Shown here in pieces: positions 18,407 to 40,191 of a DNA stretch of 63,467 nucleotides. The notes under the pieces were generated by a model. It did not search any database and had not been told where the DNA came from. It saw nothing but the letters and a program-made list of their open reading frames with translations. Source of the stretch: a virus (taxonomy: Duplodnaviria; Caudoviricetes); the IMG/VR virus record IMGVR_UViG_3300037047_000283, positions 1-63,467 of that record. The stretch is one strand, 5' to 3'. The stretch's first letter is position 1, and each line of letters begins with the position of its first letter. The position numbers and the translations under genes are program-made.

Positions 18407-18495
18407 GAAACCACCAGTTAACGGGGGTTTCTTTTCTCTATTGAAGGGATAGTCCTTCCGATTTCAGATGCCCCAGCGGGGGCTTGGAGGTTTTT
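18407..18495 (+). repeat. dispersed structured leader element, copy 1
   Basis: GAAACCACCAGTT..GGTTTCTTTTCTCTATTGAAGGGAT..TCCTTCC..GCCCC-AGCG-GGGGC-GGAGG-ATG. Confidence 0.9.
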
Positions 18496-18744
18496 ATGGT
18501 CTGGACGGCAAAAGCAGTAAATGACTTTTTGAAGAAAGTGACAGGTGGCGATGCCCATGTTGAGCAGGGCTATGAGGGTGGCAAGGCGAAGCGGGACGAT
18601 TTTGCTTCCCACAAGGAATACGTCAAGGTTCTCAATCGCACATTCGGGTACTTCTGCATCGACACCTACCGTCCCGGAATGAAGTTCTGGGGCAAAACGC
18701 CGAAGGCTGCCGCGAGAGCTGCTGGCTTCACGATTTTGGACTAA
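18496..18744 (+). CDS. hypothetical protein (island 1)
   Basis: ATG directly after the leader element SD. Confidence 0.7.
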   Translation: MVWTAKAVNDFLKKVTGGDAHVEQGYEGGKAKRDDFASHKEYVKVLNRTFGYFCIDTYRPGMKFWGKTPKAAARAAGFTILD

Positions 18745-18757
18745 TCGGGCGATCGGC

Positions 18758-18799
18758 CCTTACACTTACAGAGGCGCCAGCGGGCGCACGGAGGTTTTT
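18758..18799 (+). repeat. partial (3' half) copy of the leader element
   Basis: CCTTACACTTACAGAG-GCGCC-AGCG-GGCGC-ACGGAGGTTTTT-ATG. Confidence 0.75.
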
Positions 18800-18997
18800 A
18801 TGAAGCTCACCACTAAAGAGGCCGCTGAATTGAAAAAACTAAATCGCACATGCGCCAGCGGGAAAGCGACCCGCAAGCAGCTCCTTCGCGCCATCGACTT
18901 GAAGAGTAAAAGCCTGCGGGCGGCCCCGGTGGTCTGCCGCACTTGCGGCGTCGAAGGTTGCTGCATTCTTGCTCACGACAACCTGCGGAGGGACTAA
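18800..18997 (+). CDS. hypothetical protein
   Basis: SD GGAGG; Cys-rich tail. Confidence 0.6.
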   Translation: MKLTTKEAAELKKLNRTCASGKATRKQLLRAIDLKSKSLRAAPVVCRTCGVEGCCILAHDNLRRD

Positions 18998-19000
18998 ATC

Positions 19001-19297
19001 ATGGCGCTCGGAAATAGCAATCCTAGAAATTGGGGGAAAGAAGCGCAAGAGATCGCCTTGTCGCTTCTCTTGAAGCAACGCAATGCTGCTTTCTCGGTGA
19101 CCAGCGACGGTCGCCTGATGGTGTGGCCGAAAAACAATGCTGCCGAGCTTAAAATGTTGGCGGTCAGCGTAGCCACTCTTGAGCATCCCCGCAACGGCCT
19201 GTGGACGTCGTGCAGCCCGTTTGATGGGTCTGTTATCGCGACGGGTTGCAGTCAGCGCGACTGTATCAGGAAAACGATTGCAGCGAGGTGGATGTGA
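19001..19297 (+). CDS. hypothetical protein
   Basis: SD GGAGG; coupled to neighbours. Confidence 0.6.
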   Translation: MALGNSNPRNWGKEAQEIALSLLLKQRNAAFSVTSDGRLMVWPKNNAAELKMLAVSVATLEHPRNGLWTSCSPFDGSVIATGCSQRDCIRKTIAARWM

Positions 19298-19617
19298 TGA
19301 CGACTCCTAAATTCACTCCCGGCCCGTGGCATCCCGGCGTCGGAAACGGTGTAGGCTGCGTCTTCGCCGACAATGGCCGGATGCGTCTCGTTGATGGTGG
19401 GACGACACTCTTCCCGGTCGCCAACTGTCGCTTTGGCTGGATCGACGAGGAAGAGGACGAAGCGAACGGGCTCCTCATCGCGGCCTCCCCTGACCTCTTC
19501 GCCCTCGCCGAGCGCGTTGCCCGGCTCAACCGTGAGGCTGGCGAGATCGGCGCTGGCATGCTGGCGCAACTGGTCGACGAGGCCCGTGCTGCAGTCGCCA
19601 AGGCTAAGGGGGAATGA
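19297..19617 (+). CDS. phage hypothetical protein of the TPGPW..AN..LIAASPDL family
   Basis: Recognisable motif KFTPGPW...EANGLLIAASPDL. Confidence 0.7.
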   Translation: MTTPKFTPGPWHPGVGNGVGCVFADNGRMRLVDGGTTLFPVANCRFGWIDEEEDEANGLLIAASPDLFALAERVARLNREAGEIGAGMLAQLVDEARAAVAKAKGE

Positions 19618-19698
19618 CACTGTTATTTGTAGCGCCCGGCGTTGGTCTCAGTCGGGCGAGGATTGAAACCATTATGCTGTCTCGAAAGGAATCTGATC

Positions 19699-19920
19699 AT
19701 GCATTGTGCTCGCCGTGTTCCCCATAGTAAAATGTCTCTTGGCCATTACTTTATGGTCGCTGTCCTGATCGCCTTGGTCGCCATCATCGTCCGCCAGTTG
19801 CCGCACGCTATCGACATGGAGCTGGATATGGCAGATGCTTCCGCGCAGAACAAACGCGCCAGCGTCGAGATGAAAGGAGGCCGCTATGTTTCGTCCGACA
19901 CCACGACGGACCGTCCGTGA
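19699..19920 (+). CDS. small membrane protein
   Basis: One hydrophobic helix (FMVAVLIALVAIIV). Confidence 0.5.
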   Translation: MHCARRVPHSKMSLGHYFMVAVLIALVAIIVRQLPHAIDMELDMADASAQNKRASVEMKGGRYVSSDTTTDRP

Positions 19921-20032
19921 TCCTGTGTTTCGTTGCCATCTCTGCGCGTTCACGACGCGGTGGCGACCTGAGTATGTTAGCCATCTGCTGATGCATGAAC
20001 GGGAAGCAAAAAAGACGGCGAATACGCCATAA
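19886..20032 (+). CDS. 48-aa C2H2 zinc-finger protein
   Basis: Read by hand: FRCHLCAFTTRWRPEYVSHLLMH = C-x2-C-x12-H-x3-H; SD AAAGGAGG. Confidence 0.6.
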   Translation: MFRPTPRRTVRDPVFRCHLCAFTTRWRPEYVSHLLMHEREAKKTANTP

Positions 20033-20373
20033 CGGATAAGCGTCAGCGGCTCCGCCCGCTGGACAGCGCTTGTTATATTTCGGAGGTGAAAAGTGGCTAA
20101 AAAATACAAATTAGAGATGGAACCCTATAGCGACTCGAACGGTGATCCAATCTTTGCAAGCAAGGGGCACCATGATCCAGATTTATTCCTGGATGCGGCT
20201 CGGAAAGAATACGACGATAAGGTTATTGATGGAAAAGTGGAGCATGTCTATCTGCGCTGCACTCCAGCCCCAAAAGACAGCGACCACGGCTATTTGCTGC
20301 ACGATGCAACTCCCGGCCCCGGTGCATTCCCCGTCACTCGGCTGAAAGAAATATAACATCTGATTAGACCGCC
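20026..20373. mobile_element. single integron-type cassette: attC (20026-20078), gene, attI-like site (20351-20373)
   Basis: GCCATAAC...hairpin...GTTATAT; cassette ends GTTATATTTC (20072) and GAAATATAAC (20348) are exact reverse complements. Confidence 0.8.
20093..20356 (+). CDS. cassette-borne hypothetical protein
   Basis: SD GGAGG; stop codon lies inside the TAAC core. Confidence 0.75.
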   Translation: MAKKYKLEMEPYSDSNGDPIFASKGHHDPDLFLDAARKEYDDKVIDGKVEHVYLRCTPAPKDSDHGYLLHDATPGPGAFPVTRLKEI

Positions 20374-20394
20374 CTTCCCGCCCTCCTAAAAATC

Positions 20395-20435
20395 AAAAGC
20401 CCCACACCAGCTCTGTGCCGGTGTGGGGCTTTTTT
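20395..20435. terminator. bidirectional intrinsic terminator at the convergent junction
   Basis: AAAAGCCCCACACC..GGTGTGGGGCTTTTTT. Confidence 0.85.
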
Positions 20436-20436
20436 G

Positions 20437-20769
20437 TCAGTCTTTCCGGTGCTGCAGCCGCTTCCTCCGCCGGTCCTTGTCCGTCACCTTCCGCTGCCAT
20501 AGCCGCTTAAAGATGATGCGCTCGCAGGTCAGCAGCCGCGTGCCACTTTCATCGAACACCAGCCGCCAGCCGTTCGCGACGAAGTATTGCGCTGGCTGGA
20601 AATTGGCGTTAAGCAGGCGCAGAGCCGAAGCCGCGAGTTCTTCCGGTTCGGCTTTCTCCAGCAACAACCGTAGCGCCGCCTGCCAGCACTCTGGTTTCTC
20701 TGCGTGCAGCCACCGGGACGTGAAGCGTTCCATCGCGTGGCGGGTGATGAAGAGGCCGTCGGGATTCAT
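20437..20769 (-). CDS. hypothetical protein (ITRHAMERF motif)
   Basis: Coupled ATGA overlap with the upstream gene. Confidence 0.6.
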   Translation of the reverse strand: MNPDGLFITRHAMERFTSRWLHAEKPECWQAALRLLLEKAEPEELAASALRLLNANFQPAQYFVANGWRLVFDESGTRLLTCERIIFKRLWQRKVTDKDRRRKRLQHRKD

Positions 20770-21719
20770 GCGCGTCTCCTTAACAGGTGGACTCCGGGGA
20801 AGGCCTTCTCGACGTACTTTTCGAGGAGCGAGTAGTACCGATCGTTCTCCTTGAGGTGGGCGAGAACGATCTTCGCTGTCTTCACCGGGTCGCCGCCGGT
20901 CACGTCCTTGTGCTCCATCTCGACTTTGTAGCCGCGACGAAATTCTACGAAGTCAATCCCCTGCGGGTCTCCGCCGGCTACCGCGATAAGGATTCGTCCG
21001 TGCTGCTCAATCATCTGCGTCATGGCTCTGGTCTTGCCGAGGAGTAGTTCGCTGACTTGCGGGTGAATGGATCGTCTTGCTCTTTCCCGGCATTGCGCCT
21101 CGGTGATGAGTCTGCCGATGGGGTCGGACATATCTACCATGATCTCGTTCATTCCCGGCGCTCTCTGGGCGGCGGCACGGAGTTCGTCGGTGGAGAAGTA
21201 ACGTCCAGAGCCTTCGACTTCCCGGCTCTTCCGCAGCGCCGCCCTGACCCGCTCCGCCAGCCGGTCGATCGCCTTTACTATCGGCTTGCCTCCGTTGTCT
21301 CTGGTCTTCATCACCTTCTCCCGGAACTCCTCGAAGTCCATCTCGGCTATCCGCCCGAAAAAACGAGGATCATCGTAGTGCGCGAGGTAGAACTTTTTGG
21401 CGTCTTCTTGCGTCAGGAATCCCACCAGAATTTTCTGCTCGTCGAACTCGATAAAGTCCGGCGCCTTCATCTGGTCGATGATGTAGACGTTCGGCGCTTC
21501 CCGGTGCGGGCCGACAAAAACATCGACCGCGTCTTGGTCGCATCCCATCGTCCCTTTAAAATATCCATAAGCGTGCCGCATCCGGGTCATCCCCTCGGTC
21601 CCGTCGTCGCTGTTCTTCCATTGCCGGATCGATCCGGTCCGGTTCTCGACGGAGATTTCGAGGCCGCGAAAATTGAGGCGGCCATGCAGCGTCCGGGCGG
21701 ATTTACGGAGGAGGATCAT
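20766..21719 (-). CDS. inorganic-pyrophosphatase-like (InPase) domain protein with C-terminal DUF5661-like domain
   Basis: GLEISVEN..GSIR..YGY..GT.G.D.DAVDVFVG..FDEQKILVGF; GYKVEMEH..AKIVLAHLKE..YY. Confidence 0.75.
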   Translation of the reverse strand: MILLRKSARTLHGRLNFRGLEISVENRTGSIRQWKNSDDGTEGMTRMRHAYGYFKGTMGCDQDAVDVFVGPHREAPNVYIIDQMKAPDFIEFDEQKILVGFLTQEDAKKFYLAHYDDPRFFGRIAEMDFEEFREKVMKTRDNGGKPIVKAIDRLAERVRAALRKSREVEGSGRYFSTDELRAAAQRAPGMNEIMVDMSDPIGRLITEAQCRERARRSIHPQVSELLLGKTRAMTQMIEQHGRILIAVAGGDPQGIDFVEFRRGYKVEMEHKDVTGGDPVKTAKIVLAHLKENDRYYSLLEKYVEKAFPGVHLLRRRA

Positions 21720-21721
21720 CT

Positions 21722-22240
21722 TCAGTCTCCCTGATACATCAGGCGTTCGTGGGTCGGGACGTGCTGTCCGTTGCGGTGCGGGCAGAGCCGTCCGTTGAGG
21801 TCGCACTCGCGGCGGTGGGCCTTGACCTCAACTTCAAGCGCCGCGAGTTTCTTTCCCTCGTCTTTTTCGTGGTCGGCAAGTTTTTCGTTGGTCGCGTTGA
21901 TCTTTTCATGCAGCATGGAGGCGGTCGCATTCATCATCTTGCTGATATCACCAATGGCGACCTGCAGCTTATCGACGGCACCGTTGAAGCTCTGGGTGAC
22001 GGTCTTCTGCGCGTCGGCAAGATCGTCGATGGCGCGAGTCGTGGCGGTCTCCAGCTTCTGTATGGCGGTGTCGGTCCGGGCGATGTTTTGGTGGATCGCG
22101 TCTTGTCGTGTCTGGACGAGGCTCAGAAAGACCTCGTACAGCGCCTTACCGAGAATGCCGACGAGGCCGAGAAGGCCAAGGGAGAAGACCCAAGCCAGCG
22201 CCGGGTTCTGCATGAATACGTCTTTCATCGCGGCGGTCAT
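21722..22240 (-). CDS. membrane-anchored coiled-coil protein (possible holin-like)
   Basis: N-terminal TM helix plus coiled coil. Confidence 0.5.
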   Translation of the reverse strand: MTAAMKDVFMQNPALAWVFSLGLLGLVGILGKALYEVFLSLVQTRQDAIHQNIARTDTAIQKLETATTRAIDDLADAQKTVTQSFNGAVDKLQVAIGDISKMMNATASMLHEKINATNEKLADHEKDEGKKLAALEVEVKAHRRECDLNGRLCPHRNGQHVPTHERLMYQGD

Positions 22241-22521
22241 TTCTTTCCTCCGGTGCGGGGTTTAATCAGGAAGAGGCGCGAGGCCAGTTCGGTGTCGTTG
22301 TCGGTGTCGGTGTCGTTCCCGGTGTCTCCCGGCCAGCGCTCTCCGGAGGATTTATCCGGATGCGGCAGGTGCCCGCTGTAGCCGGGACGGACCGGGTTCT
22401 CGCATGCGATATCCCAATCAGTGTCGAGGGTGTCGTCATCGAGCATGTCCTCCATGCCGTCGACGTCATTCGGGCCAGCCTTGTGCCCCTCGCTGGTTTC
22501 AAAGATCGTCCGTTTCTTCAT
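22237..22521 (-). CDS. acidic hypothetical protein
   Basis: Start re-called at MKKRTIF; ATGA overlaps on both sides. Confidence 0.55.
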   Translation of the reverse strand: MKKRTIFETSEGHKAGPNDVDGMEDMLDDDTLDTDWDIACENPVRPGYSGHLPHPDKSSGERWPGDTGNDTDTDNDTELASRLFLIKPRTGGKK

Positions 22522-25500
22522 GCCGCTACCCTCTTTTCTGCAACGTATTTCTTGAGTCTTCTCATGGTGGCCCGGTCGTTCAGGTCGAGGCTCCCTGCCC
22601 AATGGGTTCCAAGAAGAAGTCCCTTGCCGAGTTCTTGCCCGCCGTTCTTCATGTCGGCGATATCCCACATTGTCTTGGGATCGTTGCTGGCGAGCATGCG
22701 GACGATGCTGCTGTGGACGGCTGGAGAGATTTGCGCGACGCGAGTGGTCTTTTGCCCTGCGCGAATCTCTTGTGGTCCCCGTTTAAGGTTGTCGAGGCGG
22801 CCTCGGATGCTGTCCTTGATGTTGGACCAATGTTGCGGGACGAATCCGAACCGTGCCCATGTATATCCGCCCACGTCGCAGTTGGCCGACACGTCGACGT
22901 GGGTGACTCCCAGCGCCTTGTATACTCCGAAGGAAGCGCGAAAGAGCCCTTTTGCCCCACCTCCTCCGGTTGAACCGGCGGAAAAGTAGGAGTGATAAAC
23001 TCTCAGCCCGTTGCTGTCTCTGCGGAAGTACCGGCTGATACTGGTTCCGTCGTCTCCTGCGAATTGGATATTGATGCCAGAGCTTTCGCCTCGCATGGTG
23101 ACGGTGAATTTCGTGTCACCGCCGAAGTCGGCGATCATCGTCTTCGCCATCTGTAACGCGGTCGCTTTGTCGACTCCCATGATAGAGTTGACTTTGAAAT
23201 CGGTGAGGTCGTCTGGAACATCGGTGCGGCGGATATTCTTGCCGATCTCCTCCTTGGCTTTGAAGACGTCCTCCCGCTCCAGCTTCGCCATGAGGCGGGC
23301 CGCTTCCCGGCGGATGCGGACCATGTCAGCCGTCTGCACGTTCTGTCTCACCTGTTGCGTGGCTGGTGTATGCGGCTGCCATGTGCCGGCTTGGTAGTTG
23401 CGGGCCTGCGACTGTAGCGTTGTCGGCTGGTCGAGATAGCGGTTGGCGAGGACACGGATTTCAGGGTTTGGCCAAGGGGTAACTCGGTCGTTGCTTCGCG
23501 TCCCTTCTCTGGTGACGGTTGTTCCGTCCAGTGGCACGTTCGGACGCGGCACGAAGCCGAGTTGCGCTTCGGTCAGGTTCATCGGGTTCGCCGAGTGCGG
23601 GACTGGATTCTCCGGGGTGCGGGTCGACCGTGGCGCTCTCGGTGTCCGGGGAGTTCTCAGCGCCCGCAAAGATTCTTCCCGTGCTGCCGTCTGCAGGTCC
23701 GGGTCATTGGCAAGGTGGCGAATGTCGGTGATCGGGTCCGCCGGCAACGTCGGTGCACCTTCCGCCTGATGTCCCGGTATCGGGTGCCCGGCGTTGTCGT
23801 AGCCGAAATGCCGCAGCAGGGCCGTGCGGTAGTTGTCGGCTGCCGTGGTGTAGCCGTTGCTCCGGGTCGTCTGGATCGAGAGCAGGGCTTGCACCGGATC
23901 GGGCGCCGAGGTGGCAGCGTCGTGCAGCAGGTTGATCTTGCGTTGCGCCGACAGCAGGGCAGAGTTCTGCATGTTGCTGGCTGTCAGAGTCGGCGGTACC
24001 GGGGCGGCGCCAAGGATGCGTTCGGCTTGCTGGTTGGATGCGACGGACTGCCCGGCGGCGAGGAGTGCCTGTTTGTAGTCATCGACCCGCTGGTAGTTGG
24101 TCCGGGTCCGCGAGGTCGAGAAGCTGGCGATGCCGTCATAGTTGCCGCGTTCAGCCATGAGGCGCAGCTGATTGACCCTGCGGGTGCAGCCAAGATTCGA
24201 CTCGCTGGTCTCCGGGAAACGCGGCTGCGATACCCGACGCATGGCAGCGGACATTGCCTCTCTGGTCTGTTCTGGCGTGGTCCGGCCTTCCGTCGGGCCG
24301 GCCTGCGCTGATCCGACGCGGACCCAGCGGTGGACCTGATGGCCATTGACGTCGTTGACCATCCGCAGGACGTAGCCGGGGTGGTTGGCGATGGAGGTCG
24401 ATTTGCGCAGCAGGTAGACGCCGGCCAGCGACCGGAACATGAGCATCTGCGTCCCGGCCTTGGTCCGCTCCGCCAATCCGGACGCCAGCAGCTGCTTGTG
24501 GCTGACATTCGCGCCGGCCTGCAGCTTCTTCTTCTGGCTTTCGCGTTTGCTGCGCTGCTTGGAGTCGAGGAAGTCGTCCCGGCGCTTCAGGTAGCTGTAA
24601 CGCTCCTGTTCGGCGGCGAGGACTTTATCTTTGTCGGTATCGTTCAGGCCGTGATAATGGGGGATGGTGCCGAGGCGGTTCTGACGGACTTTATGGAGGT
24701 CGAGCTGCGTCTGCGCTCCGGCGATCTGGTCACCGTACTTGCGGATGCGGCTGTCTTCGTGCGACTGGACGTGAACGAGGGCGCCGGACGCTGTGGTCCG
24801 GTCGTATTCGTTGACGTGGGCCTTGGCTACTTCTTCTTTTTCGGCTTGTCCTTGACCTTGCTGGCGGAGGCCAGCGCCTCGGCGATCATGGAGCGCTTCT
24901 TCTGGACGATTTCCGGGGTATCTTTCGCTTTTGTTGACATTGGCAGTCTCCTGTGCGGTTTCCTTGACGATCGCGCCCTTGTCCTTCTTGTCGCGGGCGT
25001 TGCCGAAGATGTCGGTGGCGCCGTACTGGTCGGCGTCTTCACGCTCGACAATCTCCTGATTCGCCTTGTCAGTCAAGAGTTTAAAGAACTCCGATAACTT
25101 GCGGCGGGAGCCCTTGAGGGCGTGGACGGCACGGGTCAGGTCTTCGGTCACTTCGCCGACGTGCTGCGCCTTGCCGTCATCGTCGAAGGAGGCTTGCGCC
25201 AGCTGGTCGTCGATGCTCCCCTTGTTGCGCTTGGCGCTGCGGATATGATCGATCGACTCCAAGAGTTCGTGCGTCACGTCGAGGTCGCTGTGCTGCTGAA
25301 TCTTGGCGTAGGTACCTGCCGAGGCGCTCATGGCGTTAATGATGTTGCGGACGTCGCTGTCGGCGCTCTCCACCATTAGCTCGGTCAGGACTTCGGATTT
25401 GTAGACCTTGGCGAAGACAGCAGCCTGTACCCGCTCGATCATCTTCTTGTTCGGCTCGCCGTACTTGTCTTTCAGGCCGGCGGCCTCGTTCTTGCCGAGA

Positions 25501-31839: not shown

Positions 31840-31882
31840 GTCCCCCTTTTGTCCCCCTTTTGTCCCCGTGGGGACGAATCCC

Positions 31883-31970: not shown

Positions 31971-34443
31971 ATGTTCATCGAAACTATCGAGTTTATCGGC
32001 GGCACGCTGTCTGGGCTTACCTTTTCGGGGAAGACCACCTCTCCTCGCGATGTTGGTTTTACTTGCTTCAAACCTGTCGGCGGCTCTCCCTACCGCGTTG
32101 TCTCAGTTGTTAGTCTCCCTTAGTTTTCTGATTGCTTCCGTCTCTCCCCTTTGATACTATCCCAAACCTTGGAGGTGTACCCCATGTCAAAAAAATCGAT
32201 CCGCTCCATGCGCCGCTCCTACGACTACCTTGAGCGCCGGCTGACTTTTAAGTATCGCGACGGCTTCTCTGATAACGATAGCTGGATGCCGGTCGGTTCC
32301 TTCCGGGTGTTGAAGCAGCAGGAGGTCTGGGAGGACGACGAGTCTGCCGTCCGTCTCATGACGATCAAGGTTATCAGCGATCGCCCTGTGGCCGAGGTCA
32401 TCGAAGCACTGCAGACGTATCTGACTTACGGCTGCCACTGCGAGCACGATTGCTGCGGCCATGTCTTCTGCCACTTCGTCGAGGCCCGTCGTACCCGTCG
32501 CAACGAGTATTTCGTCGTTCAGCACCTTGGCCGCAACTGCTAACTCTGGAGGCTCCTGTTATGTCAAAAATGCCGTTAGCGTGGCACGGTCAGTGTGTTG
32601 ATAATGCCGCTCGAACCTTAGCCGAAAAAAAAGCTGCCGTCGCCAATCAGCAGAGAGAGATCGACCGAGAAGAGGCTCTGCTGGAATTCCGCAAGCGGCA
32701 GCTATCTGCGGCAGTGTCGCGTGGTCTGGACGGTTACGATCCTGATCGCTTCCTTGTCGCCAGAAAGAAGGTGTCCTGATGCGTAATGCCTGCCACCGTC
32801 CTGCGACCGCTGATCTCGTTCAGCGCGACCGGGTGATTGTTTATTCCTCTTCCTCCTCCCCGGTGTTTCATCTGGGGGGAGGTTTTTCTGCCGAACAGGC
32901 CGACGATATTAGCGACTTCTGCGGGGCGCATCTGCTCTCGGCTGCTGAGTTCGTCGATCTTGTGACTGGAGGGTCTTGCTGATGAAACATACTTTTGAGC
33001 CGTGGTGTCTTATGGGAAGCCATACAAATGAGTTTACGGTTGCGTCCTCTGGATGCGGTCAGATTGCCAGAATGCTTCAGCCGTTGACCGCGACTGCGGC
33101 ATACGATGGCGCTCGCATCGTCGCCTGCGTCAATGCCCTTGCCGGTATCGACGACCCGGCGGCGTTCCGTGCGGAGTCAGATTTCCTCCGGCTGTCGCTG
33201 GCTGCCGAGAACGACCGCCTGTCGCGGAATGAGTTGCTGGAGCGGCAGAATGCGGAGCTGCTGCACAATTCTCGCGCCGCCAAAACCATGTTGGGATTGG
33301 TCCAGAGCAACCTTGACGCGGGAGCAACGGCATCGCAGTCTACCAATTTGCGGTTTGCTATCTGCTTACTGTCGGAGGCAATTTCCAGTTGTTCCGGGGT
33401 AGCGACTTCTCCGGGTGTCGTTGGTGATCTGGCCGATGCGGTCTCTGGTCTACACGGTGCCCTGTCGCGGATGATCGACAAGCATGATCCGGATAGCATC
33501 GAGGCGGAGTGGTTGTCGCACTCGCATGAGGCCGTTCGGAGCGCGCAGGGCGGCGACCTCGAAATGTACAAGGGGCTCCTTGCCGCCGAGCAGGAGGACT
33601 GCCAGCTGGAGCGCAAGGCCAAGAATGATACTTGGGAACGTGCCGAAGAGTTGCGGAGGCAGCGGGATGAGTTGAAATCCCTCCTTGAAGAATCGGAAGT
33701 ATCAATCGGGGGAGACTGGCGCAATCGCCGTGATTCCCTTCTCGCCAAGTGCAAGGGGGGGTCATGAAACGTCAAGAATTTATCGATGCCGTATCTCGTG
33801 CTGGCTGGATTCCGCGTGGGGATGCACAGGCTACCCAGATCGGCACATTGTGGAAGCAGCTATTTCCGAAGGATGCCGAGATCGAGTTTCTTTCTGCCGA
33901 GGCGGATGCGGCGATGCTTCTGAAAAAACAGCGAGACAATCTTCTTCTGGCTCTGGAACCGTTTGCCATTTTTGCCTGCGATGTTCCGCCCGGCGAGGTG
34001 TGTCGTTGTCACAATTGCGAAGCGAGAAAAGTTATTACTCGGATCAAGGAGGGCGCATGAAGATAACCTGTCGCGTCCTCCTCGATGCCGTCATTGTCGC
34101 TAATCAGACGACACTGGCTGGCTTTCCTTTTGGCTTCCGTCTCCAGTCTCCGGACTCTGCCGGCAACTACCGGTTAAAGATGGTTTACCGGGTGCTTAGT
34201 TCGGAACCCTCCGTCATTCTTTGCACCGGTTCGGCGAAGGAGGTTCACGTGGCGATGCAGGCCATTTTGACCATACTCCCCGTGGCGAGGGTATCTATCG
34301 GCGAAGACTTGGCCGCTGCTGTTTCTGGCTTGCTGTCGTTTGTCGAGGAAGACGGTGATGGTGACGGTTTCTCCCCTCTGGAATCTGCGATATTCAATGC
34401 GGAGCAGGCGCTGGCTCGCTACCGCAAGGGAGACGTGTCATGA
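31971..34443 (+). CDS. run of small hypothetical genes (31971-32123, 32184-32543, 32561-32779, 32779-32982, ~32982-33767, 33764-34060, 34057-34443)
   Basis: Consecutive ORFs with SDs and stop/start overlaps; no recognisable families. Confidence 0.55.
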
Positions 34444-34775
34444 TCGCCGGCCACCGAGCGTATGTGTCGGGACCGATGACCGGGATCGAACTTTTCAACC
34501 GCCCAGCGTTCTTCCTTGCCGAGACCATCCTCCTCGCCTCTGGTGCCGCCTCCGTCTTCAACCCGGCACGGCATCCCGACGGCCTGACGTGGGAGGAGTA
34601 TATGGCGCTGGATATCGCCGGCATGCACGACTGCACCGCCTTCGTCCGCCTGCCGGGGTGGGAGGCATCCCGTGGCGCCCGGATCGAGAACGATCTGGCG
34701 AATGAGTGGGGACTGCTGGTCCTCGACTTGCCTCCTTGTGTCCTGAGTGTTCCCTTTATCGAAACCACCAGTTAG
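34440..34775 (+). CDS. DUF4406-like (nucleoside deoxyribosyltransferase-fold) protein
   Basis: YVSGPMTG..FN..AF..FNPA..WEEYM..LPGWEASRGARIE. Confidence 0.8.
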   Translation: MIAGHRAYVSGPMTGIELFNRPAFFLAETILLASGAASVFNPARHPDGLTWEEYMALDIAGMHDCTAFVRLPGWEASRGARIENDLANEWGLLVLDLPPCVLSVPFIETTS

Positions 34776-34853
34776 TGCGGGTTTCTTTTCTCTATTGAAG
34801 GGACTGATCTCTTCCACTTTTCGGATGCGCCAGCAGGCGCGAAGGAGTTCATC
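34761..34853 (+). repeat. leader element copy 4
   Basis: Same consensus; hairpin GCGCC-AGCA-GGCGC then AAGGAG. Confidence 0.9.
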
Positions 34854-35287
34854 ATGTTTAACGCCAAAGCTATGTACCTTCGTCAACTCCGCGATATCGT
34901 CGACACCCTTGCGCTGGCCAAAGATGCGGCTGCCGAGGCCGTCGCCAAAGACCCAATCTACTTCATGAGCTGGGGCGGTCAGGTGTCGTTTGTGGACGCC
35001 AAGGGCCACAAGTGCAGCTGCAACGTCGTCACGCAGGCATTCAAGGCTCGCATCGCTATCTCCCTTCTGGACGCCGAGGACAATGGCATCTCGTCGAGGC
35101 CGCCAAGCTCCTGCGCGAGCGGATGATCGACACGCAGCTGCGTTTCTCCGGCGGCTCATCGACCAGCGCTTTCTCGAATGCCGTGGAGATGCTGGAGGCG
35201 GATGCCCGCCGCGACCTGCTTTGCTACTTCGGTCCATTGACTGCCGAGGCGATTCGTTCGCTGGAAGAGGAGGTGTCCCATGTGTGA
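34854..35287 (+). pseudogene. probably one gene split by a frameshift near 35085-35092
   Basis: ORF 34854-35126 looks coding up to AEDNGI; the overlapping frame looks coding from LVEAAK to 35287 and has no own SD/start. Confidence 0.5.
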
Positions 35288-36309
35288 GTTCCAGAGTGCT
35301 TACGAGTTGTCGTCCATCGAGCGGGCCATGACGCCGCCGTCTCCTGAGAAGGTCGCCGAGGCTGCCAAGGTCGCGGCCCTTCTTGCCGCTGGTCGCTTCG
35401 TCGTTATGGCGGAGGTTCTTGCTCATTGCCGCTTCACCGATGCCGTCCTTGGCTGCGATTACTATTACGCGACCGACTGCGCCAGCTACGACGAAGCCAC
35501 CGCTTGGATCGAGGAGCATTATCTGGACGCCGAGGGATTCTCGGTTCGCTGCCCGGAGGGCTTCGTGGTCCCTCGCTTTGTCTATGTTGACGACGACGCA
35601 TTTTAACTTTTCCCTCTGGAGGCTTCCCCATGAAAGGTCTTACTTGCTCCATCCTGAAAGCCAAGGATTTCCCTGACTGCTCCTGCGACGGGATATCGTC
35701 CCGGTTCTCGCAGGTCACGCTCTGCGGTCCCGATATCGAAGGCGTCTTTGAGCCGTCCCCGGACGCTCCGGAGGTTCGCCTTGTGAAGCGCAATCTGGTC
35801 CGGGATGAGATTTACGTCCATGCCCGTCCCGCCGAGATTCCCGCCGGCACTCACTCTGCGATGGGTGGCTGCTTCATCTGGTCGTGCGATGCCCGCTTTC
35901 CGTCGCGGCAGCCGATCCCCCTTCATGACCGAGTCGAGAGGAGTCATAACCCATGCAGTCTCACTACGCGATAAACGTGTCCCGCAATGGCCGGTTCTTT
36001 TTCCGCACCGGCAATGAAATCACCGCTCCCGATGTCGCCGAGGAGGTCGTGACCGAGTTGCGGCTGCGGCTTCCGGCTGCTGACGGCTTTGTCGTCACTT
36101 GTCACCACTGGACGTGCTCCGGCCATATCTATATGCCGTTCTCCGTTGAGACGGAGCCGGTCGCTGGTCCTGTTATTGCCCGGTGTCCGTCTTGCACGAC
36201 ACTCTGTGCCAAGCTGCAAACTTCTCCCTGCTTTATCTGTTCCGAGTGCGGCTTGGAGTTCCCCTTGGTGGTACCCGGTGGCAAGGAGGTGTCCTGTGAC
36301 CCGCTCTGA
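35280..36309 (+). CDS. three hypothetical genes (35280-35606, 35630-35974, 35953-36309)
   Basis: SD-bearing consecutive ORFs; 35630 has the common phage motif MGG.F..S.D.RF..PIPLHDR. Confidence 0.6.
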
Positions 36310-36562
36310 TCATGTTGCCGCTCATGGCGACGGCGCTGTCTTCACCGAGGACTGGACCGGTCCCCGCTTTCGTTACGGGTACCGCAACCGTCCGTTCGCC
36401 ATGTGCCATCAGCCTCGAAATTGGATTATCGGAGCTGTCAATGCCGACTTCCGCGATCCTGTGGCTGGCGTGCGTCACGGTTGTGTCGATTATCCCTTCC
36501 AGCTGTCAGACCACGAGGTCTATTCGTTCGAGCTGGTCTTTCTTGGCGAGGTGACGCCATGA
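36296..36562 (+). CDS. DarA C-terminal-like domain protein (defence-against-restriction associated)
   Basis: YGYRNRPF...QP...HG.VDY...LS..EV.SFEL pattern. Confidence 0.6.
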   Translation: MTRSDHVAAHGDGAVFTEDWTGPRFRYGYRNRPFAMCHQPRNWIIGAVNADFRDPVAGVRHGCVDYPFQLSDHEVYSFELVFLGEVTP

Positions 36563-36708
36563 CCCGCTGCCTCCTGATCCTGATCTTCCTTGCCTCCCCG
36601 TGCCTCTCCGCCGGGGAGGACTGACACATAACGATTGCGTTTGTGCGGCAAGTGGAGTGCAGACAGCACCAATAATCTGGTTATATTTTTTCAAGAGGTA
36701 TCGAAAAG

Positions 36709-36891
36709 ATGCACAAAATCTTATGTATATTTGGGTTACATGACTACAAAAAGCCTTACGTCAGAGAGCACAAGAGAGAAGTACGTTGTGACCCTCGGCC
36801 TGTGATGGTGACAGATTACGCTGTGCGGAAAACCTGCAAAGTCTGCAGTAAAGATAAGCTGGTAATTCGAGTAGATTGCGAATTAAAGTAA
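36709..36891 (+). CDS. cassette gene 1 (C.FGLHDY..CxxC small Zn-binding protein)
   Basis: Flanked by GTTATATTT / AAATATAAC. Confidence 0.7.
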   Translation: MHKILCIFGLHDYKKPYVREHKREVRCDPRPVMVTDYAVRKTCKVCSKDKLVIRVDCELK

Positions 36892-36935
36892 ATATAACGG
36901 ATCATTATTGACTGGTGAGAGAAGGAGCGAAGCGG

Positions 36936-37241
36936 ATGAACGAATCCACGTTGAATTATTGGTTAGGCGTTCTTCGGGAGTGCTGTCAAAGAGAGGTTAA
37001 CGCTCTCGGTGGGGTGAAGGGAAATCTCCCGTCTCACTATCTGAAATACGGGGATAGTGGAATGAAGAACATCGGGGCTTTAACTGTATCTATCTCCGCA
37101 CACACTGGTAAAAATTGCCAGCAGGTTAGACGCTCACTGCATCAGCTCCGCATTGCGGGAAAAGTACTTTGCTTGAACGGCAAGGGATGTATTTGCCGAT
37201 GGTGGCCCATTGGTATGGCAGAAGAGTTGTTGAACGCCTAA
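36936..37241 (+). CDS. cassette gene 2, winged-HTH-like
   Basis: SD and ATG lie in the attC loop; flanked by GTTAGGCGTT / AACGCCTAAC. Confidence 0.65.
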   Translation: MNESTLNYWLGVLRECCQREVNALGGVKGNLPSHYLKYGDSGMKNIGALTVSISAHTGKNCQQVRRSLHQLRIAGKVLCLNGKGCICRWWPIGMAEELLNA

Positions 37242-37300
37242 CGATTTTAAGCTGTGCCGCTCGACGGCACGAGCGCCTTGTTATGGCGCGGGAGACGAGG

Positions 37301-37441
37301 ATGGAAAACGAAATTGTTGAAAAATGTGAAAAATGTGGGAGTGAAAACGTAGAGGTGCAGTGGGCACCCTTCGGGCCTGACAAATGCGCCGAGCCTGTCT
37401 CTGTGCTATGTCTGGATTGCGGTGCAGATCGGGAGATTTAA
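37301..37441 (+). CDS. cassette gene 3, zinc ribbon
   Basis: CEKCGS..CLDCG; flanked by GTTATGGCGC / GCGCCATAAC. Confidence 0.65.
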   Translation: MENEIVEKCEKCGSENVEVQWAPFGPDKCAEPVSVLCLDCGADREI

Positions 37442-37518
37442 GCGCCATAACGGCTTTAAGCTAAAGGGCTTGCGTTTAATGAAACAGGAAATATGAGACA
37501 CAACGGAGGTTGTTATCA

Positions 37519-37779
37519 ATGGATGAGACACAAAATCCCGCAGAGAGTAGCAAGTCCACTTTGAGCGATTGGTTAGTCCGATTTGGAGACAGGGAAGAAA
37601 CCATTTACAGCGTCGAATTGCACTTGTTGCGCCGTATTGCGGAAGCAAGCAGTGACATGTTAAAGGCGAGGCACTGGCCTGAATTTTGTGATGCTTGCGG
37701 TGGACAAGAAAAGCTGAACACGGCACACGCTGACACTGTTGCCGAATACAATCAATGGCTCTCTGATGGAGAGGGCTAA
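37519..37779 (+). CDS. cassette gene 4, hypothetical
   Basis: SD GGAGG and ATG in the attC loop; stop codon in TAAC. Confidence 0.65.
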   Translation: MDETQNPAESSKSTLSDWLVRFGDREETIYSVELHLLRRIAEASSDMLKARHWPEFCDACGGQEKLNTAHADTVAEYNQWLSDGEG

Positions 37780-37869
37780 CGCTTGAGCGTCACCGTTCGC
37801 GGGTTCTTTGCGGTACGGTGCACAGCGTTGGTTATGCCAGCGCTGCAATTTAAGGAGGTAATAGAAATC

Positions 37870-38073
37870 ATGCCTGAACAAGAATATGATCTGAGACCCG
37901 TTGGTGTTCGATATGTTTGTGATAAGTGCGGAGTTGGCGTAATGACTCCTACTGGAACGATGCTTTGTAGTTATCCTCCACAGTGGCCGCATAAATGTGA
38001 CCATTGCGGAATCATCGAGAACATGCAGGAGAAATACCCAACTGTAAGATACCGGATGCCTGCTGGTTTATAG
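37870..38073 (+). CDS. cassette gene 5, zinc ribbon
   Basis: CDKCG..SYPPQWPHKCDHCG; SD AAGGAGG. Confidence 0.7.
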   Translation: MPEQEYDLRPVGVRYVCDKCGVGVMTPTGTMLCSYPPQWPHKCDHCGIIENMQEKYPTVRYRMPAGL

Positions 38074-38138
38074 CCATAACGATTGCGTTTGTGCGGCTCG
38101 TCCGCACCAGTGATTTTTTAGACCATTGAGGAGGATGT

Positions 38139-38411
38139 ATGCAGGATGTCACCAATAAAGGGAAAGAACTTATCGAACGGTGGAAGGATGCCACCAGAGG
38201 GGAAGAATCCGCTAAAGAGAAGCTACTAAAGGCGCAACGAGAACTACAAACGGCAGAAGAGCATCTTGCTCACTGGCTTCTACCTGAAGACGCCAAGGAT
38301 GGTGAGAAGTTTTGTGTCTGGTATGGCGACTCGTTGATTACCGCCTCGGAGAGTGATACCAACGGGTATGAAGTCACTGTACGAAAACGCGGAACAAGTT
38401 TGATGGTCTAA
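38139..38411 (+). CDS. cassette gene 6, hypothetical
   Basis: Flanked by TTAGACCA / TGGTCTAAC. Confidence 0.7.
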   Translation: MQDVTNKGKELIERWKDATRGEESAKEKLLKAQRELQTAEEHLAHWLLPEDAKDGEKFCVWYGDSLITASESDTNGYEVTVRKRGTSLMV

Positions 38412-38469
38412 CGGATTAAGCGTCACCCGTCTATCGGGCAAGCGGTGGTTAAACCGCGAAAGGATATTT

Positions 38470-38838
38470 ATGCAAGAAATGATTAGCAGGCTGAGAAGCT
38501 ATCAGAACGGAGTGCATGGCCCGTTCTTCCTCGAGGTCGCCGCAAAATTGGAACATATGTGGCGCAGTGCTCAACCGGTAATACCTGAAGGATGCAGACT
38601 GGTGATAGTTCCCCGTCAACCCACTGCTGACGAAACAGAGTATCGGGCGTATCTGGAGAAGTTACAACCTGACACCCTCCGAAATATGATCATTGACTTA
38701 TCGGCAGCACAGAGCGAGCAAGGGGAAGCTCTCCAACTGATTGCTGCGGCATCCCTCGGACAGACAGGGCCAGAGGCGCGAGGCCAGTTAGAGAAGGTCA
38801 AAAAGGTTGCAAAGGGCGCGTTGGCGGAGTCGGTTTAA
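38470..38838 (+). CDS. cassette gene 7, hypothetical
   Basis: Flanked by GTTAAACCG / CGGTTTAAC. Confidence 0.7.
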   Translation: MQEMISRLRSYQNGVHGPFFLEVAAKLEHMWRSAQPVIPEGCRLVIVPRQPTADETEYRAYLEKLQPDTLRNMIIDLSAAQSEQGEALQLIAAASLGQTGPEARGQLEKVKKVAKGALAESV

Positions 38839-39050
38839 CTACTGATTATACCGCCAGTTCGTCGGCCTAACGCTTATTTTAATAAACGGCGAATATCTAA
38901 GACAATCGCACAGTTAATTTTAGTTTCAGCGGATAACAAAATCACGAAAGACCGCCAATACTTGTGATATCATCGCGCCCGGCCACCGTGCCGGGCCTTC
39001 CCTCTCAGCGCCCCTGCGGCCTATTCCTTTCCCCTGCCAAGGAGTTTCCC

Positions 39051-39833
39051 ATGTCTACCTGCCCGTCATGCCAAGCTGTCGTCAAGAAAGGTTCCAGCTT
39101 TTGCTGCTACTGTGGACACCAGCTCCCGGTCGTCGTCGGTGTATCTTATCCCTACGGCATCCGGTTTCCGTCCGCTCACGGCGATGCAGCAGTCGTCGCT
39201 CTGGCTCGCACCGCTCCGAGGTATTCTCTCGACGTTTCCCTTGGTGGAGTATTCCATGTTGCCCTCTTCGACCGCCTGACGCTGCCGAAGCTGGCCGACC
39301 TCCATCGGGTGGCGTTCCTTGCCTTGCCTCGCGGCTCCATCATGCATACTGTCGACGGCAGGACGTTCTTTGGCGGCTCCTCGTTCTGGGCCTGCATGTC
39401 CCGGCGGCTGAATGATGAGGGAGTCTTCGACGGCGAGGTCGAGCACTGGACCGCTCGCTGCCATTCCTTTTTCGGCTGCATCTCGGCGCAGAAGCGGCAG
39501 CATGCGATGTATCACCGCGAGGGGTGGGAGGTGTTCTATCCGGGCCGGCATGGACGCTTTGCGGACTCCGTGAGCGGCGACGAGGCGAACCCTTGCCCGG
39601 AGGTCGATGCGGGTCGCCACCAGTTCTTCTACCCGGACCGGGCGAAGATACAGGCCGAGGTGCTGCAGTTGGCGAAGCGCTCTGGCTGCAATCGGTGTCC
39701 GCTGTTCTCCCCGGCTTATCTGGCGCAGCAGATGAAGAAGATCCCGCTCGTGTTGGAGTTCGGCGTGACTCCGGATTGCGGCTGGTTCCGCTGTCAGCTG
39801 CATGGCGATGCGGCTTGGTTGCGGGTTTATTAA
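39051..39833 (+). CDS. zinc-ribbon-domain hypothetical protein
   Basis: SD AAGGAG; CPSC..FCCYCG N-terminus. Confidence 0.65.
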   Translation: MSTCPSCQAVVKKGSSFCCYCGHQLPVVVGVSYPYGIRFPSAHGDAAVVALARTAPRYSLDVSLGGVFHVALFDRLTLPKLADLHRVAFLALPRGSIMHTVDGRTFFGGSSFWACMSRRLNDEGVFDGEVEHWTARCHSFFGCISAQKRQHAMYHREGWEVFYPGRHGRFADSVSGDEANPCPEVDAGRHQFFYPDRAKIQAEVLQLAKRSGCNRCPLFSPAYLAQQMKKIPLVLEFGVTPDCGWFRCQLHGDAAWLRVY

Positions 39834-39847
39834 CAAGGAGGATTCAG

Positions 39848-40105
39848 ATGAAGATTGGCATTGGCTCTCTTGAGATTTCTAACGAGACTGGTATTGTGAC
39901 TTTTGATTGTGGCTGCCAGTTCGATCCTGAAACGTATGCGGTTGTCCCTTCGACTTCGTGCCGACCATATCCACGGCAAGAATCTGTGGAGCGTCATGAC
40001 GATGGGTCCCCTAAGTATGTTCGCGAGGCTATCCCTGCTCGGCATTCGATGGATGTGAGCTATTATTTCCAGCGCGGCAAAGAGATCATCGAGTCTTGCG
40101 GCTGA
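39848..40105 (+). CDS. hypothetical protein
   Basis: SD AAGGAGG; start MKIGIGS. Confidence 0.6.
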   Translation: MKIGIGSLEISNETGIVTFDCGCQFDPETYAVVPSTSCRPYPRQESVERHDDGSPKYVREAIPARHSMDVSYYFQRGKEIIESCG

Positions 40106-40191
40106 AACCACCAGTTTACGCGGGTTTCTTTTCTCTATTGAAGGGATGATCCTTCCGAATTCAGATGCGCCAGCGGGCGCCGGAGGTTGCT
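40104..40191 (+). repeat. leader element copy 5
   Basis: Same consensus; GCGCC-AGCG-GGCGC-CGGAGG. Confidence 0.9.

Follow-up and report, generated by a model that had tools for sequence, protein, structure and literature searches.

A repeated leader element ahead of rightward genes in a temperate myovirus: a candidate portable promoter cassette

What does an element of about 90 nt contribute when the same sequence recurs, always in one orientation, directly ahead of the genes of a phage? The question is raised by a 63,467-nt stretch of phage DNA, henceforth referred to as the window, which represents about 70% of the genome of an uncultivated ~90-kb temperate myovirus. On balance, the element probably serves as a portable expression cassette for rightward (early, replication, accessory/anti-defence) operons.

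Copies and relatives of the element

The window contains five full copies of 91–96 nt and one leader-only copy (Table 1). Every full copy lies on the + strand and ends in a Shine-Dalgarno sequence (SD; GGAGG or AAGGAG) followed by an ATG 5–8 nt further on; strand and terminal start codon agree with the first-pass annotation. The repeat search grouped four copies that are 73–85% identical to the reference copy. When one mismatch was permitted, the 12-mer AAACCACCAGTT was matched five times in the window, each time exactly and on the + strand, compared to an expectation of 0.15 and to 0 of 100 shuffles reaching five; GCCAGCRGGC occurs five times (0.69 expected). The element is a composite of the ~100-bp class spanning the interval from upstream stop codon to downstream ATG, and the DUF4406 gene upstream of copy 4 ends within its core (stop codon 34773–34775). 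The match at 18758, previously annotated as a partial copy, is real and is a complete leader missing only the core; it starts at the upstream gene's stop codon.

Table 1 Features of the window.
Feature	Position	Strand	Details
Copy 1	18407–18498	+	Divergent gap adjoining head-protease operon; repeat search 18407–18497 (D1)
Copy 1 core	18407–18446	+	Block A ACCAGTT, block B TCTTTTC
Copy 1 hairpin 2	18443–18458	+	
Copy 1 hairpin 3	18470–18483	+	GCCCC/GGGGC
Copy 1 SD	18486–18490	+	
Copy 1 ATG	18496–18498	+	
Leader-only copy	18741–18802	+	GGGC/GCCC hairpin, GCGCC/GGCGC hairpin, SD, ATG 18800; without core; repeat search, 3' half alone, 18758–18804 (D3)
Copy 2	29040–29131	+	ATG 29129; divergent gap adjoining leftward 709-aa gene; repeat search 29040–29130 (D1)
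Copy 3	31883–31973	+	Hairpin 3 GUGCC/GGCAC; repeat search 31883–31973 (D1)
Copy 4	34761–34856	+	Loop AGCA, SD AAGGAG; repeat search 34755–34804 (D2)
Copy 5	40104–40194	+	ATG 40192; repeat search 40104–40194 (D1)
Sigma70-type promoter-like site	18344–18372	-	TTGACA-17-AAAAAT; back to back with copy 1
Sigma70-type promoter-like site	29001–29029	-	TTGATA-17-TACAAT; back to back with copy 2
Terminator-like hairpin with U7	31801–31841	+	Directly 3' of DUF4942 gene, 42 nt 5' of copy 3
Bidirectional terminator-like hairpin, 17 pairs	20395–20433		Closes first rightward island (18496–20356)

A complete relative, G001, carries eight copies in one orientation, and homologous elements with identical spacing were found in two more distant lineages, G004 (5 copies) and G007 (7 copies). 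All copies are oriented with, and lie 5' of, rightward genes (5/5 in the window, 8/8, 5/5 and 7/7 in G001, G004 and G007), with a start codon within about 100 nt of every copy except those at G001 6835 and 37461. Only two short blocks are constrained across all lineages, CAyCAkTT and TCyTyT separated by 10 nt (blocks A and B), and downstream of these follow a hairpin, the SD and the start codon. The eight invariant columns of an ungapped alignment of 25 copies from the four phage records all fall within blocks A and B, while 12 core bases are invariant within the clade of the window. Four G001 copies keep the core and have a wholly different leader.

Operons headed by copies in G001 include those for integrase, replication, methylase and anti-restriction functions: accessory genes encoding DUF4942 and DarA_C domains, a C5 methylase, a block with SSB at its end, a replisome loader together with DnaB and VRR-NUC, and a block with an exonuclease and SbcCD-like genes. 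Virion genes are encoded on the opposite strand to these operons. The suggestion that the element co-regulates accessory islands holds insofar as it is a phage-specific 5' module of accessory and early blocks, and must be widened to the replication and integration operons. No Rfam 15 family matched the element at the gathering score or even at E ≤ 1, so that a described family, raised earlier as a possible objection, is rejected as its identity. The sole Rfam match in the window, CRISPR-DR9 at 19629–19669, lies off the element.

Promoters, terminators and the conserved core

No sigma70-type site was found on the + strand in or beside the window elements at the scan threshold, which agrees with the earlier remark that a clear -35/-10 pair is missing. 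The only nearby + strand match (40039–40066) has 9 of 12 bases, and in the 25-copy alignment TAnnnT is not conserved at any one column. The phage does possess consensus-type promoters, though on the strand opposite to the elements; copies 1 and 2 abut two of them, leaving no space for a second, rightward promoter. When compared by eye, the core resembled none of the sigma70, sigma54, sigma32, sigma28 or ECF consensuses. The centres of blocks A and B are ~17 bp apart, a geometry that fits neither sigma70/ECF promoters (~23 bp) nor sigma54 promoters (~12 bp).

Judged from gene arrangement, a promoter is nevertheless needed at copies 1, 2 and 3 and at G001 3222–4603. At the latter position, a lone + strand C5-methylase gene stands among leftward genes; an element core, a small hairpin and an SD precede it and a 12-pair terminator follows, and the scan returned no sigma70-type site upstream of it on the + strand. 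Copy 3 follows a terminator-like hairpin of -23.3 kcal/mol (z -3.55; 0 of 200 shuffles equally stable). A non-canonical promoter most likely lies in the core, because the isolated methylase cassette offers no other candidate and copy 3 comes after a strong terminator.

In such a cassette, the first ~35–40 nt (block A, 10 nt, block B) would constitute the promoter, read by the host RNA polymerase together with a phage or host factor such as an activator, a sigma-like protein or a repressor. With a start site a few bases 3' of block B, hairpin 2 would lie at the 5' end of the transcript, and in the clade of the window a second GC hairpin (hairpin 3) would follow 2–3 nt ahead of a strong SD. The leader hairpins most likely shield the 5' end and leave the SD accessible, whichever gene follows. 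Pfam and PHROG scans of heuristic gene calls, taking in part of the G001 leftward genes and, for PHROG, 43 window proteins, returned neither a phage RNA polymerase nor a sigma factor, and no obvious activator. Nothing points to the single-stranded DNA hairpin promoter that had been offered as an option, and the scans contain no phage RNA polymerase.

Blocks A and B could instead be bound by an immunity repressor or another early regulator over weak promoters, so that the copies would form an operator array whose main purpose is to repress the operons together in the lysogen. Such a reading is unlikely as the full account, and it is compatible with the cassette since both can hold. The phage has a temperate look (integrase, a 200-aa HTH_31 protein, Ant- and Rha-type antirepressors), the sites are asymmetric, dispersed and all aligned with transcription, and the 12 invariant bases go far above what a promoter usually requires. 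Moreover, complete relatives without the element have another dispersed motif, TGTAGCGYATA, in 15–17 copies, which fits exchangeable pairs of regulator and site. P1 C1 operators and the stoperators of L5-type mycobacteriophages are dispersed 13–17-bp sites with known repressors; they likewise comprise many asymmetric sites across a temperate phage genome, aligned with transcription, whereas the present module consists of 35–40 nt plus a leader. No binding protein was found, however, the HTH_31 protein also occurs in relatives without the element, and no dyad symmetry is kept across lineages. An array of operators would, in addition, still require a promoter at the isolated cassette and at the copy behind the terminator.

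Pairing in the core and leader

Hairpin 3, for which compensatory changes had been annotated, is paired in 55 of 55 cells (100%) across 11 copies, with double-sided changes in three of its five pairs (GC/CG, CG/UA, GC/UG). Scored jointly, hairpins 2 and 3 reach a covariation score that was matched by 1 of 500 shuffles. Forms of hairpin 3 differ at syntenic copies, GCCCC in window copy 1 versus GCGCC in G001 and the reverse at copy 5; the change therefore arose or was transferred more than once. The GAAGG(G)A/TCCTTC stem of the first-pass annotation (hairpin 2) is paired in 89.4% of cells and shows little covariation, with a single pair changed on both sides, and the data thus weakly support it as a conserved structure. 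The hairpin after the core has a mean z of -1.34 over 24 distinct copies (z < -1 in 11/24 and < -2 in 6/24), and the stem sequences differ among copies. Folding energies of the whole element were not unusual compared to shuffles (z -0.13 to -1.56).

The first proposed stem, GAAACC/GGTTTC (hairpin 1), did not survive comparison with shuffles. It is paired in 66.0% of cells over the 25 copies from four phage records compared to 64.7% after shuffling (145 of 500 shuffles at least as high), its covariation score falls under the shuffle mean, the columns of its outermost pair (3 and 27) form a standard pair in just 10 of 25 copies, and G004 and G007 lack the stem. Hairpin 1 is sequence conserved within one clade and not a conserved structure.

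These figures bear on whether GAAACC...GGTTTC with the adjoining TTTTC acts as a terminator insulating successive rightward units, with the promoter lying elsewhere. A T-run does follow the inverted repeat in all window copies, and G001 copy 37461 begins 6 nt past the ssb stop and is followed by a near-consensus sigma70 promoter, TTGACA-18-TATAGG. Such a role is nevertheless very improbable: the stem has just 6 bp (2–3 G-C pairs) with a 13-nt loop, the terminator scan did not call it, and for copies in divergent gaps there is no transcript from upstream to be terminated. With pairing close to that of shuffles, hairpin 1 was rejected as an intrinsic terminator. Hairpins 2 and 3 lie downstream of the core and lack a U-run.

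A signal acting in RNA is also quite unlikely. The core would then be transcribed from farther upstream and serve in nut- or put-like antitermination, in processing or as the target of a translational regulator. Lambda nut and HK022 put are structured RNAs that follow a promoter, contain a conserved hairpin and act with cognate factors. Block B is U-rich, the core of the window clade can be folded into a hairpin with ACCAGUU in the loop, and one G004 copy forms a perfect 7-bp stem around that loop; this register differs from hairpin 1, however, and hairpin 1 pairs hardly above shuffles. Alternatively, the SD can be paired with CCUUC, the 3' arm of hairpin 2 (92.7% of cells), making a translational switch possible, but this pairing is not retained in G004 and G007 when the sequences are read by eye. 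Copies 4 and 5 lie within co-directional gene arrays, and read-through transcripts must include them; upstream of the isolated G001 cassette, copy 1 and copy 2, though, the scan found no rightward promoter. The element has no Rfam match, and the Pfam scans contain no N/Q-like protein.

Synteny breaks, cassette junctions and comparable systems

Identity between the window and G001, its closest complete relative, drops from 85–100% to ~45% at 18496–18503, 29121 and 40194. Synteny stops at 18503 for copy 1, at 29121 for copy 2 (within the leader, the G001 copy having neither SD nor ATG) and at 40194 for copy 5. Thus three of the five element 3' ends are no more than 15 nt away from a break in synteny (binomial P 3e-4 versus random placement). 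Among called gene starts, this holds for 19 of 90, and against this null the enrichment is modest (P~0.07 by our own arithmetic). Copy 3 sits in a 328-nt segment (31798–32125) that is missing from G001 and holds the terminator, 11-nt tandem repeats, the element and a 50-aa ORF; copy 4 shows no synteny break with G001.

Contigs from two other metagenome studies (X2 and X3) add junctions at copy 3 (31973 to 32124/32129, both studies) and copy 4 (34840 to 35630, both studies), while a 271–272-nt indel relative to G003 and an X2 contig (39831/39832–40102) abuts the 5' edge of copy 5, its end being at 40103 in the comparison with G003. An ambiguous X2 joint, 34800 to 40103, connects copies 4 and 5 and has a 29-nt side. 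Six of the 15 joints listed touch an element, compared to the ~2.7% of the compared stretch that elements occupy; these joints were called at 85% likeness, 11 further ones exist beyond the 15, several have sides of 19–31 nt, and repeats can draw split alignments. Since ~90 nt are common to all copies, they may double as homology patches at which genes right behind the SD, or blocks between copies, would be swapped, inserted or lost. The earlier idea of a homology handle for shuffling gene blocks fits both the breaks with G001 and the metagenome joints.

Cassette-like indels adjoining the element, an encoded tyrosine recombinase and a GTT within the conserved block could also suggest a site-specific recombination site, with attC-like or other recombinase targets mobilising cassettes as in integrons. 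Integron attC sites are imperfect inverted repeats on the 3' side of the cassette, and crossover takes place at a fixed point of their GTTRRRY core. Here the element, with its SD, lies 5' of genes, no inverted-repeat architecture is conserved, and junctions fall at many positions (the 5' edge, past block B, past hairpin 3, 10 nt 5' of the ATG, the ATG) and not at a single crossover point. An attC-type site was consequently rejected, and a site-specific recombination site in general is extremely improbable.

A portable cassette has partial parallels in other phages. Morons are promoter-gene-terminator units of temperate phages. In G001, the core, the C5 methylase and the terminator, antiparallel among virion-associated genes, together make up a unit built like a moron; morons are not known to share a flanking sequence, whereas here one element starts every unit. 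Morons are also discussed in PMC2839356.

In Cluster K mycobacteriophages, the SAS/ESAS system comprises a 13-bp motif, GGGATAGGAGCCC, located 3–8 bp 5' of the start codon (PMC3203893). SAS and the present element are both asymmetric repeats with nearly all copies in one orientation, directly 5' of the starts of many unrelated genes, and conserved across subclusters, some copies having an extra upstream inverted-repeat part and a variable spacer (PMC3203893). SAS includes the SD, whereas here the conserved part lies 50–60 nt 5' of the SD and the SD-proximal part varies, so that the comparison concerns architecture only.

A further parallel is provided by the PeSL (promoter-early stem-loop) cassettes of T4-type phages (PMC2839356, PMC4122927), which are ~100-bp repeated composites running from stop codon to ATG. 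They carry an early promoter that is strong and sigma70-like, with AT-rich sequence upstream of it, and a stem-loop for which termination was demonstrated; crossovers were located between -10, SD and ATG (PMC2839356). Mini-circles that arise when adjacent elements recombine are a further trait of PeSL cassettes. Both elements have a stem-loop (often GGGG...CCCC in PeSL, GAAGGGG/CCCCUU-type here), both are repeated in plastic regions rich in small ORFans, and both bound indels or replacements between close relatives (PMC2839356). Unlike PeSL, the present element has no sigma70-type hexamers in its core, its hairpins lie in the leader without a U-run and a separate terminator precedes copy 3 only, and it belongs to a temperate ~90-kb non-T4 myovirus in which replication operons are headed too.

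Synteny breaks and variant junctions cluster at the edges of the element, much as is described for PeSL cassettes of T4-type phages. The module most likely marks sites of cassette swapping among related phages.

The repeated element and its distribution

The IMG/VR record comprises 63,467 bp with 57.7% G+C and an estimated completeness of 72%. It is labelled as a provirus, yet each of its ends (1 and 63467) lies within a phage gene, a tail gene in one case and the integrase in the other. Host flank is absent, and the window aligns as a permuted piece, ~70% in length, of a 90-kb relative. The closest complete relative, G001 (89,928 bp), is circularly permuted with respect to the window and 68–96% identical to it in aligned blocks; judged against G001, about 30 kb is absent from the window. 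Gene coordinates were taken from a heuristic ORF scorer. The long leftward genes form a contractile-tail virion and packaging set (tail-tube initiator, sheath, SU10-type capsid, portal, gpA-type terminase, terminase small subunit and head protease), accompanied by a 1430-aa protein with a ddrB-ParB domain, methylases, ThyX and HNH endonucleases. Most of the rightward genes are small and match no family; those for DUF4942, DUF4406 and DarA_C proteins are the exceptions. The part of G001 missing from the window, together with the rest of its plus strand, encodes an integrase, an HTH_31 protein, SSB, a DnaB helicase with its loader, VRR-NUC, an exonuclease, an SbcCD-like pair, C5 and N6/N4 methylases and antirepressors. 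Based on this gene content, the plus strand was assigned as the one that carries the early, replication and accessory genes of a temperate myovirus. Among cultured phages, the relatives closest in TerL reach only 27–35% identity, and the word "promoter" has 0 occurrences in one paper on that group. The only pointer to a host is an MCP homologue, 58% identical, in a record named Oryzomonas rubra.

Several other differences from G001 were observed. The "polyvalent" 1430-aa ddrB-ParB protein corresponds to a 641-aa protein in G001 (compared with L044, a G001 locus, at 1296–4603), and where the window's gene continues, G001 carries an antiparallel, element-headed C5-methylase cassette. Three free-standing endonuclease-like genes, recognized by one weak LAGLIDADG match and two HNH matches, lie in or between virion and packaging genes, and one rightward block has no counterpart in G001 at that place.

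The repeat family described in the first-pass annotation was recovered at the stated coordinates by repeat search. An invariant 12-mer occurs five times, always on the plus strand, against 0.15 occurrences expected, and each full copy terminates in a Shine-Dalgarno sequence (SD) and ATG. A sixth copy had been called partial; it does lack the 5′ core, but its leader is complete, with two hairpins, SD and ATG.

Coordinates of the features discussed (window positions unless a record is named)
Feature	Position	Strand	Remark
Element copy 1	18407 (start)	+	
Element copy 2	29040 (start)	+	
Element copy 3	31883 (start)	+	
Element copy 4	34761 (start)	+	
Element copy 5	40104 (start)	+	
"Partial" copy	18741–18802		
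Leftward sigma70-type site	18344–18372	-	TTGACA-17-AAAAAT, back to back with copy 1
Leftward sigma70-type site	29001–29029	-	TTGATA-17-TACAAT, back to back with copy 2
Leftward sigma70-type site	L044 3248–3276	-	TTGATA-17-TAAACT, back to back with an element copy
Tandem 11-nt units	31838–31876	+	
CRISPR-DR9-like repeat	19629–19669	+	
73-aa protein gene	1496–1717	-	
Rightward block	7112–8807	+	
Endonuclease-like gene	7683–8807	+	
Endonuclease-like gene	45157–46020	-	
Endonuclease-like gene	55730–56464	-	
1430-aa protein gene	22518–26810	-	
Joint at element	31973->32124		
Joint at element	31973->32129		
Joint at element	34800->40103		
Joint at element	34840->35630		New 12-nt SD segment between sides
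Joint at element	39830->40103		
Joint at element	40133->40815		

The repeat is real, and its conservation extends over several lineages. Eight copies were found in G001 and six in a second phage record, G002, all on the plus strand, and one in a third, G003. Searching viral, genome and metagenome collections with the exact 24-nt core pattern returned only these phages, one more metagenome fragment, and chance or coding matches. A major capsid protein (MCP) profile search yielded 31 more relative loci besides the G001 and G002 records, among which a core HMM matched one lineage (E 4.5e-8). Pattern and k-mer searches identified five copies in the whole record of G004 (MCP 65% identical), seven on a single strand in that of the complete phage G007 (MCP 53%), and one at a further relative locus, L067. 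Placement in G007 is syntenic, with one copy divergent from the head-protease operon and the rest in the early region. A looser 14-base pattern hit at least 118 loci in viral contigs, and no listed locus matched the core HMM at E<1e-3. Against GenBank phages, blastn with the element gave short chance matches only, and megablast of 18000–22000 gave no match. Rfam scans matched no family to the element. These scans and a narrow literature search, with subscription journals outside its scope, found no published description of the element or its two-block core.

Three complete ~90-kb relatives (G005, G006 and G008) lack the element, so its presence does not track capsid similarity. These sister phages (loci L094–L103 and L109–L113) carry instead 15–17 copies of an unrelated motif, TGTAGCGYATA, on both strands and just upstream of SD and genes; the copies inspected are followed by TCAA and SD. 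This is a different dispersed regulatory motif.

Conserved core and leader hairpins

Alignment of 25 copies was gap-free over 67 columns, of which C8, C11, A12, T14, T15, T26, C27 and T29 are invariant. The resulting layout is a block A (CAyCAkTT), ten variable bases and a block B (TCyTyT). Four G001 copies (3302, 35778, 37461 and 43792) retain no more than the first ~40 nt, the leader behind being different or absent. A hairpin begins 4–11 nt past block B, with stem sequences unrelated among copies; its folding gave a mean z of -1.34 over 24 distinct copies, 6 of which fell below -2. Folding energies of the whole element were ordinary.

Three stems had been proposed. The third, next to the SD, was upheld: 55 of 55 cells are paired, both partners have changed in three of its five pairs, and pairing dropped to 48–63% in slid controls. 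Since this hairpin differs between syntenic copies of the window and G001, the compensatory change does not represent one inherited event. The second stem is weakly supported, being 89.4% paired but showing little covariation; G004 and G007 have comparable G-run/C-run hairpins with an AUGA-type loop at its position. Its 3′ arm could pair with the SD instead in 92.7% of cells within the window's clade, which would allow a translational switch. This is considered a minor possibility because, as read from the sequences, the complementarity is not kept in other lineages. The first stem, GAAACC/GGTTTC within the core, was rejected, as 66.0% pairing compares with 64.7% in shuffles (145 of 500 as high) and covariation lies under the shuffle mean. 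The single perfect stem of G004 sits on other columns.

A gap within the first rightward island contains a single 41-nt match to Rfam CRISPR-DR9 (45.3 bits, gathering score 45; E 1.3e-9 on 301 nt), with a stem of GCGCCCGG/CCGGGCG type and a 3′ tail ending in ATTGAAAC. No second copy was found in the window and none in G001–G008. The repeat is a candidate array remnant or a candidate solitary-repeat RNA anti-CRISPR, a known concept. Kinship with the element was rejected: the end of the repeat (GGATTGAAAC) resembles the element start (ATCGAAACC) in just 2–3 copies, and the likeness is therefore regarded as coincidence.

Proposed transcription from the core and candidate readers

Three arrangements suggest where rightward transcription would begin. 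In G001, a lone rightward C5-methylase gene is flanked by two leftward genes, and the 150-nt gap upstream of it holds a leftward TTGATA-17-TAAACT site followed by the core, a 4-bp hairpin, the SD and the gene. This unit is closed by a 12-pair terminator, and a promoter scan found no rightward sigma70-type site for it. A terminator of -23.3 kcal/mol (z -3.55) precedes copy 3 by 42 nt, and copies 1 and 2 each face away from a leftward consensus-type promoter (10/12 matches in both cases), 35 and 11 nt away, respectively. Rightward transcription of these units would consequently have to start in or just after the core. RNA datasets were sought for 28900–38899, and none was listed. A sigma70 -10 at TATTGA or GATGAT was also considered and dropped, conservation across copies being absent. 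The motif GGCAAAAAAATTGAYA is common to the leftward sites in the table, all of them near-consensus, which stand in front of the head-protease operon and the genes for large virion-associated proteins. Between the terminator and copy 3 are three tandem 11-nt units (CCCCCTTTTGT-like), ending in a GTCCCC/GGGGAC hairpin and not present in G001.

With transcription starting at the core, the hairpin a few bases on would form the RNA 5′ end, a position at which hairpins stabilize bacterial mRNAs in RNase E-dependent decay. The core sequence is not known to match any promoter consensus. The element is best read, from its sequence context, as a putative non-canonical promoter with a structured leader and SD that would double as a cassette boundary. 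A terminator reading was considered and dropped. The single-stranded-DNA hairpin promoter suggested in the first-pass annotation was likewise abandoned because no virion RNA polymerase was found among the proteins scanned.

Pfam and PHROG scans detected no phage RNA polymerase or sigma factor, and no clear activator, among the proteins scanned; PDB sequence searches with three large virion-associated proteins returned nothing. A presence/absence comparison over six relatives flagged only a 73-aa, a 674-aa and a 120-aa protein. The 120-aa protein has winged-helix neighbours at 0.89–0.91 in the ESM Atlas, which makes it a possible reader but a weak lead only; its G007 homologue does not adjoin an element. 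The 73-aa protein, encoded in the baseplate/tail region, is 61–69% identical in the element-bearing G004 and G007, compared with 28–41% for its neighbours. It was undetected in G005, G006 and G008 (tblastn, E 1e-4) and has no family match.

Blocks A and B could, more speculatively, be a new promoter class of uncultivated ~90-kb temperate myoviruses, read by a phage-encoded factor that would be sigma-like, sigma-appropriating or an activator. The module of promoter, insulating hairpins and ribosome-binding site would then be a swappable standard expression part, through which the phage population would plug in or exchange anti-defence and other accessory genes. Factor/site pairs might themselves be swapped between lineages, the sister phages having TGTAGCGYATA. 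This proposal is tentative and considered rather unlikely as a whole.

Proposed exchange at the element and comparison with known cassettes

At copies 1, 2 and 5, sliding identity of the window to G001 is 85–100% as far as the element end and ~45% from the start codon on; copy 4 has homology on both flanks. For three of the five elements, one of the 70 syntenic breakpoints is no more than 15 nt from the 3′ end (P 3e-4 if placement were random). Ordinary gene starts are equally close in 19 of 90 cases, which leaves a roughly threefold enrichment over them (P near 0.07). A 328-nt unit that G001 does not have contains copy 3 together with a terminator, repeats and a 50-aa ORF. In G003 and in an X2 contig, from another metagenome study, 271–272 nt ending exactly at the 5′ edge of copy 5 are missing, and the G001 copy at 6835 has lost its SD and ATG, with the break 10 nt before the window's ATG.

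Joints were also sought in contigs of two other metagenome studies at 85% likeness. Six of the 15 joints listed, out of 26 in all, begin or end in or at an element, and the four copies concerned make up ~2.7% of the stretch compared. These joints would back an exchange-point role but are supportive rather than conclusive, since split alignments tend to gather at repeats and short sides occur among them. Junction positions are spread over the element, which argues for homologous or selected exchange rather than site-specific crossover; an integron-like site was dropped given this scatter.

Among described systems, the PeSL cassette of T4-type phages comes closest. PeSLs are ~100-bp conserved modules running from stop codon to ATG that combine an early promoter with a GGGG...CCCC-type stem-loop, concentrate among ORFans, bound indels between close relatives, and have crossovers mapped between -10, SD and ATG (PMC2839356, PMC4122927). 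The present element behaves alike. It differs from that description in missing the sigma70-like promoter, one of the defining features of PeSLs, in having leader hairpins rather than demonstrated terminators, and in residing in a temperate non-T4 phage, where it also heads replication operons. The SAS/ESAS of Cluster K mycobacteriophages, which lie in one orientation just upstream of many unrelated starts (PMC3203893), are a second analogue.

Two short blocks at fixed spacing provide a compact motif for locating the early operons of these phages, for seeking the factor that reads it, and for studying leader hairpins that make expression independent of the downstream gene. If the present reading is true, PeSL-type modular shuffling would extend from virulent T4-type to temperate uncultivated phages and to a non-sigma70-like promoter, and repeated regulatory cassettes would be a more general means for phages to gain and exchange accessory genes, methylases and anti-restriction genes among them.
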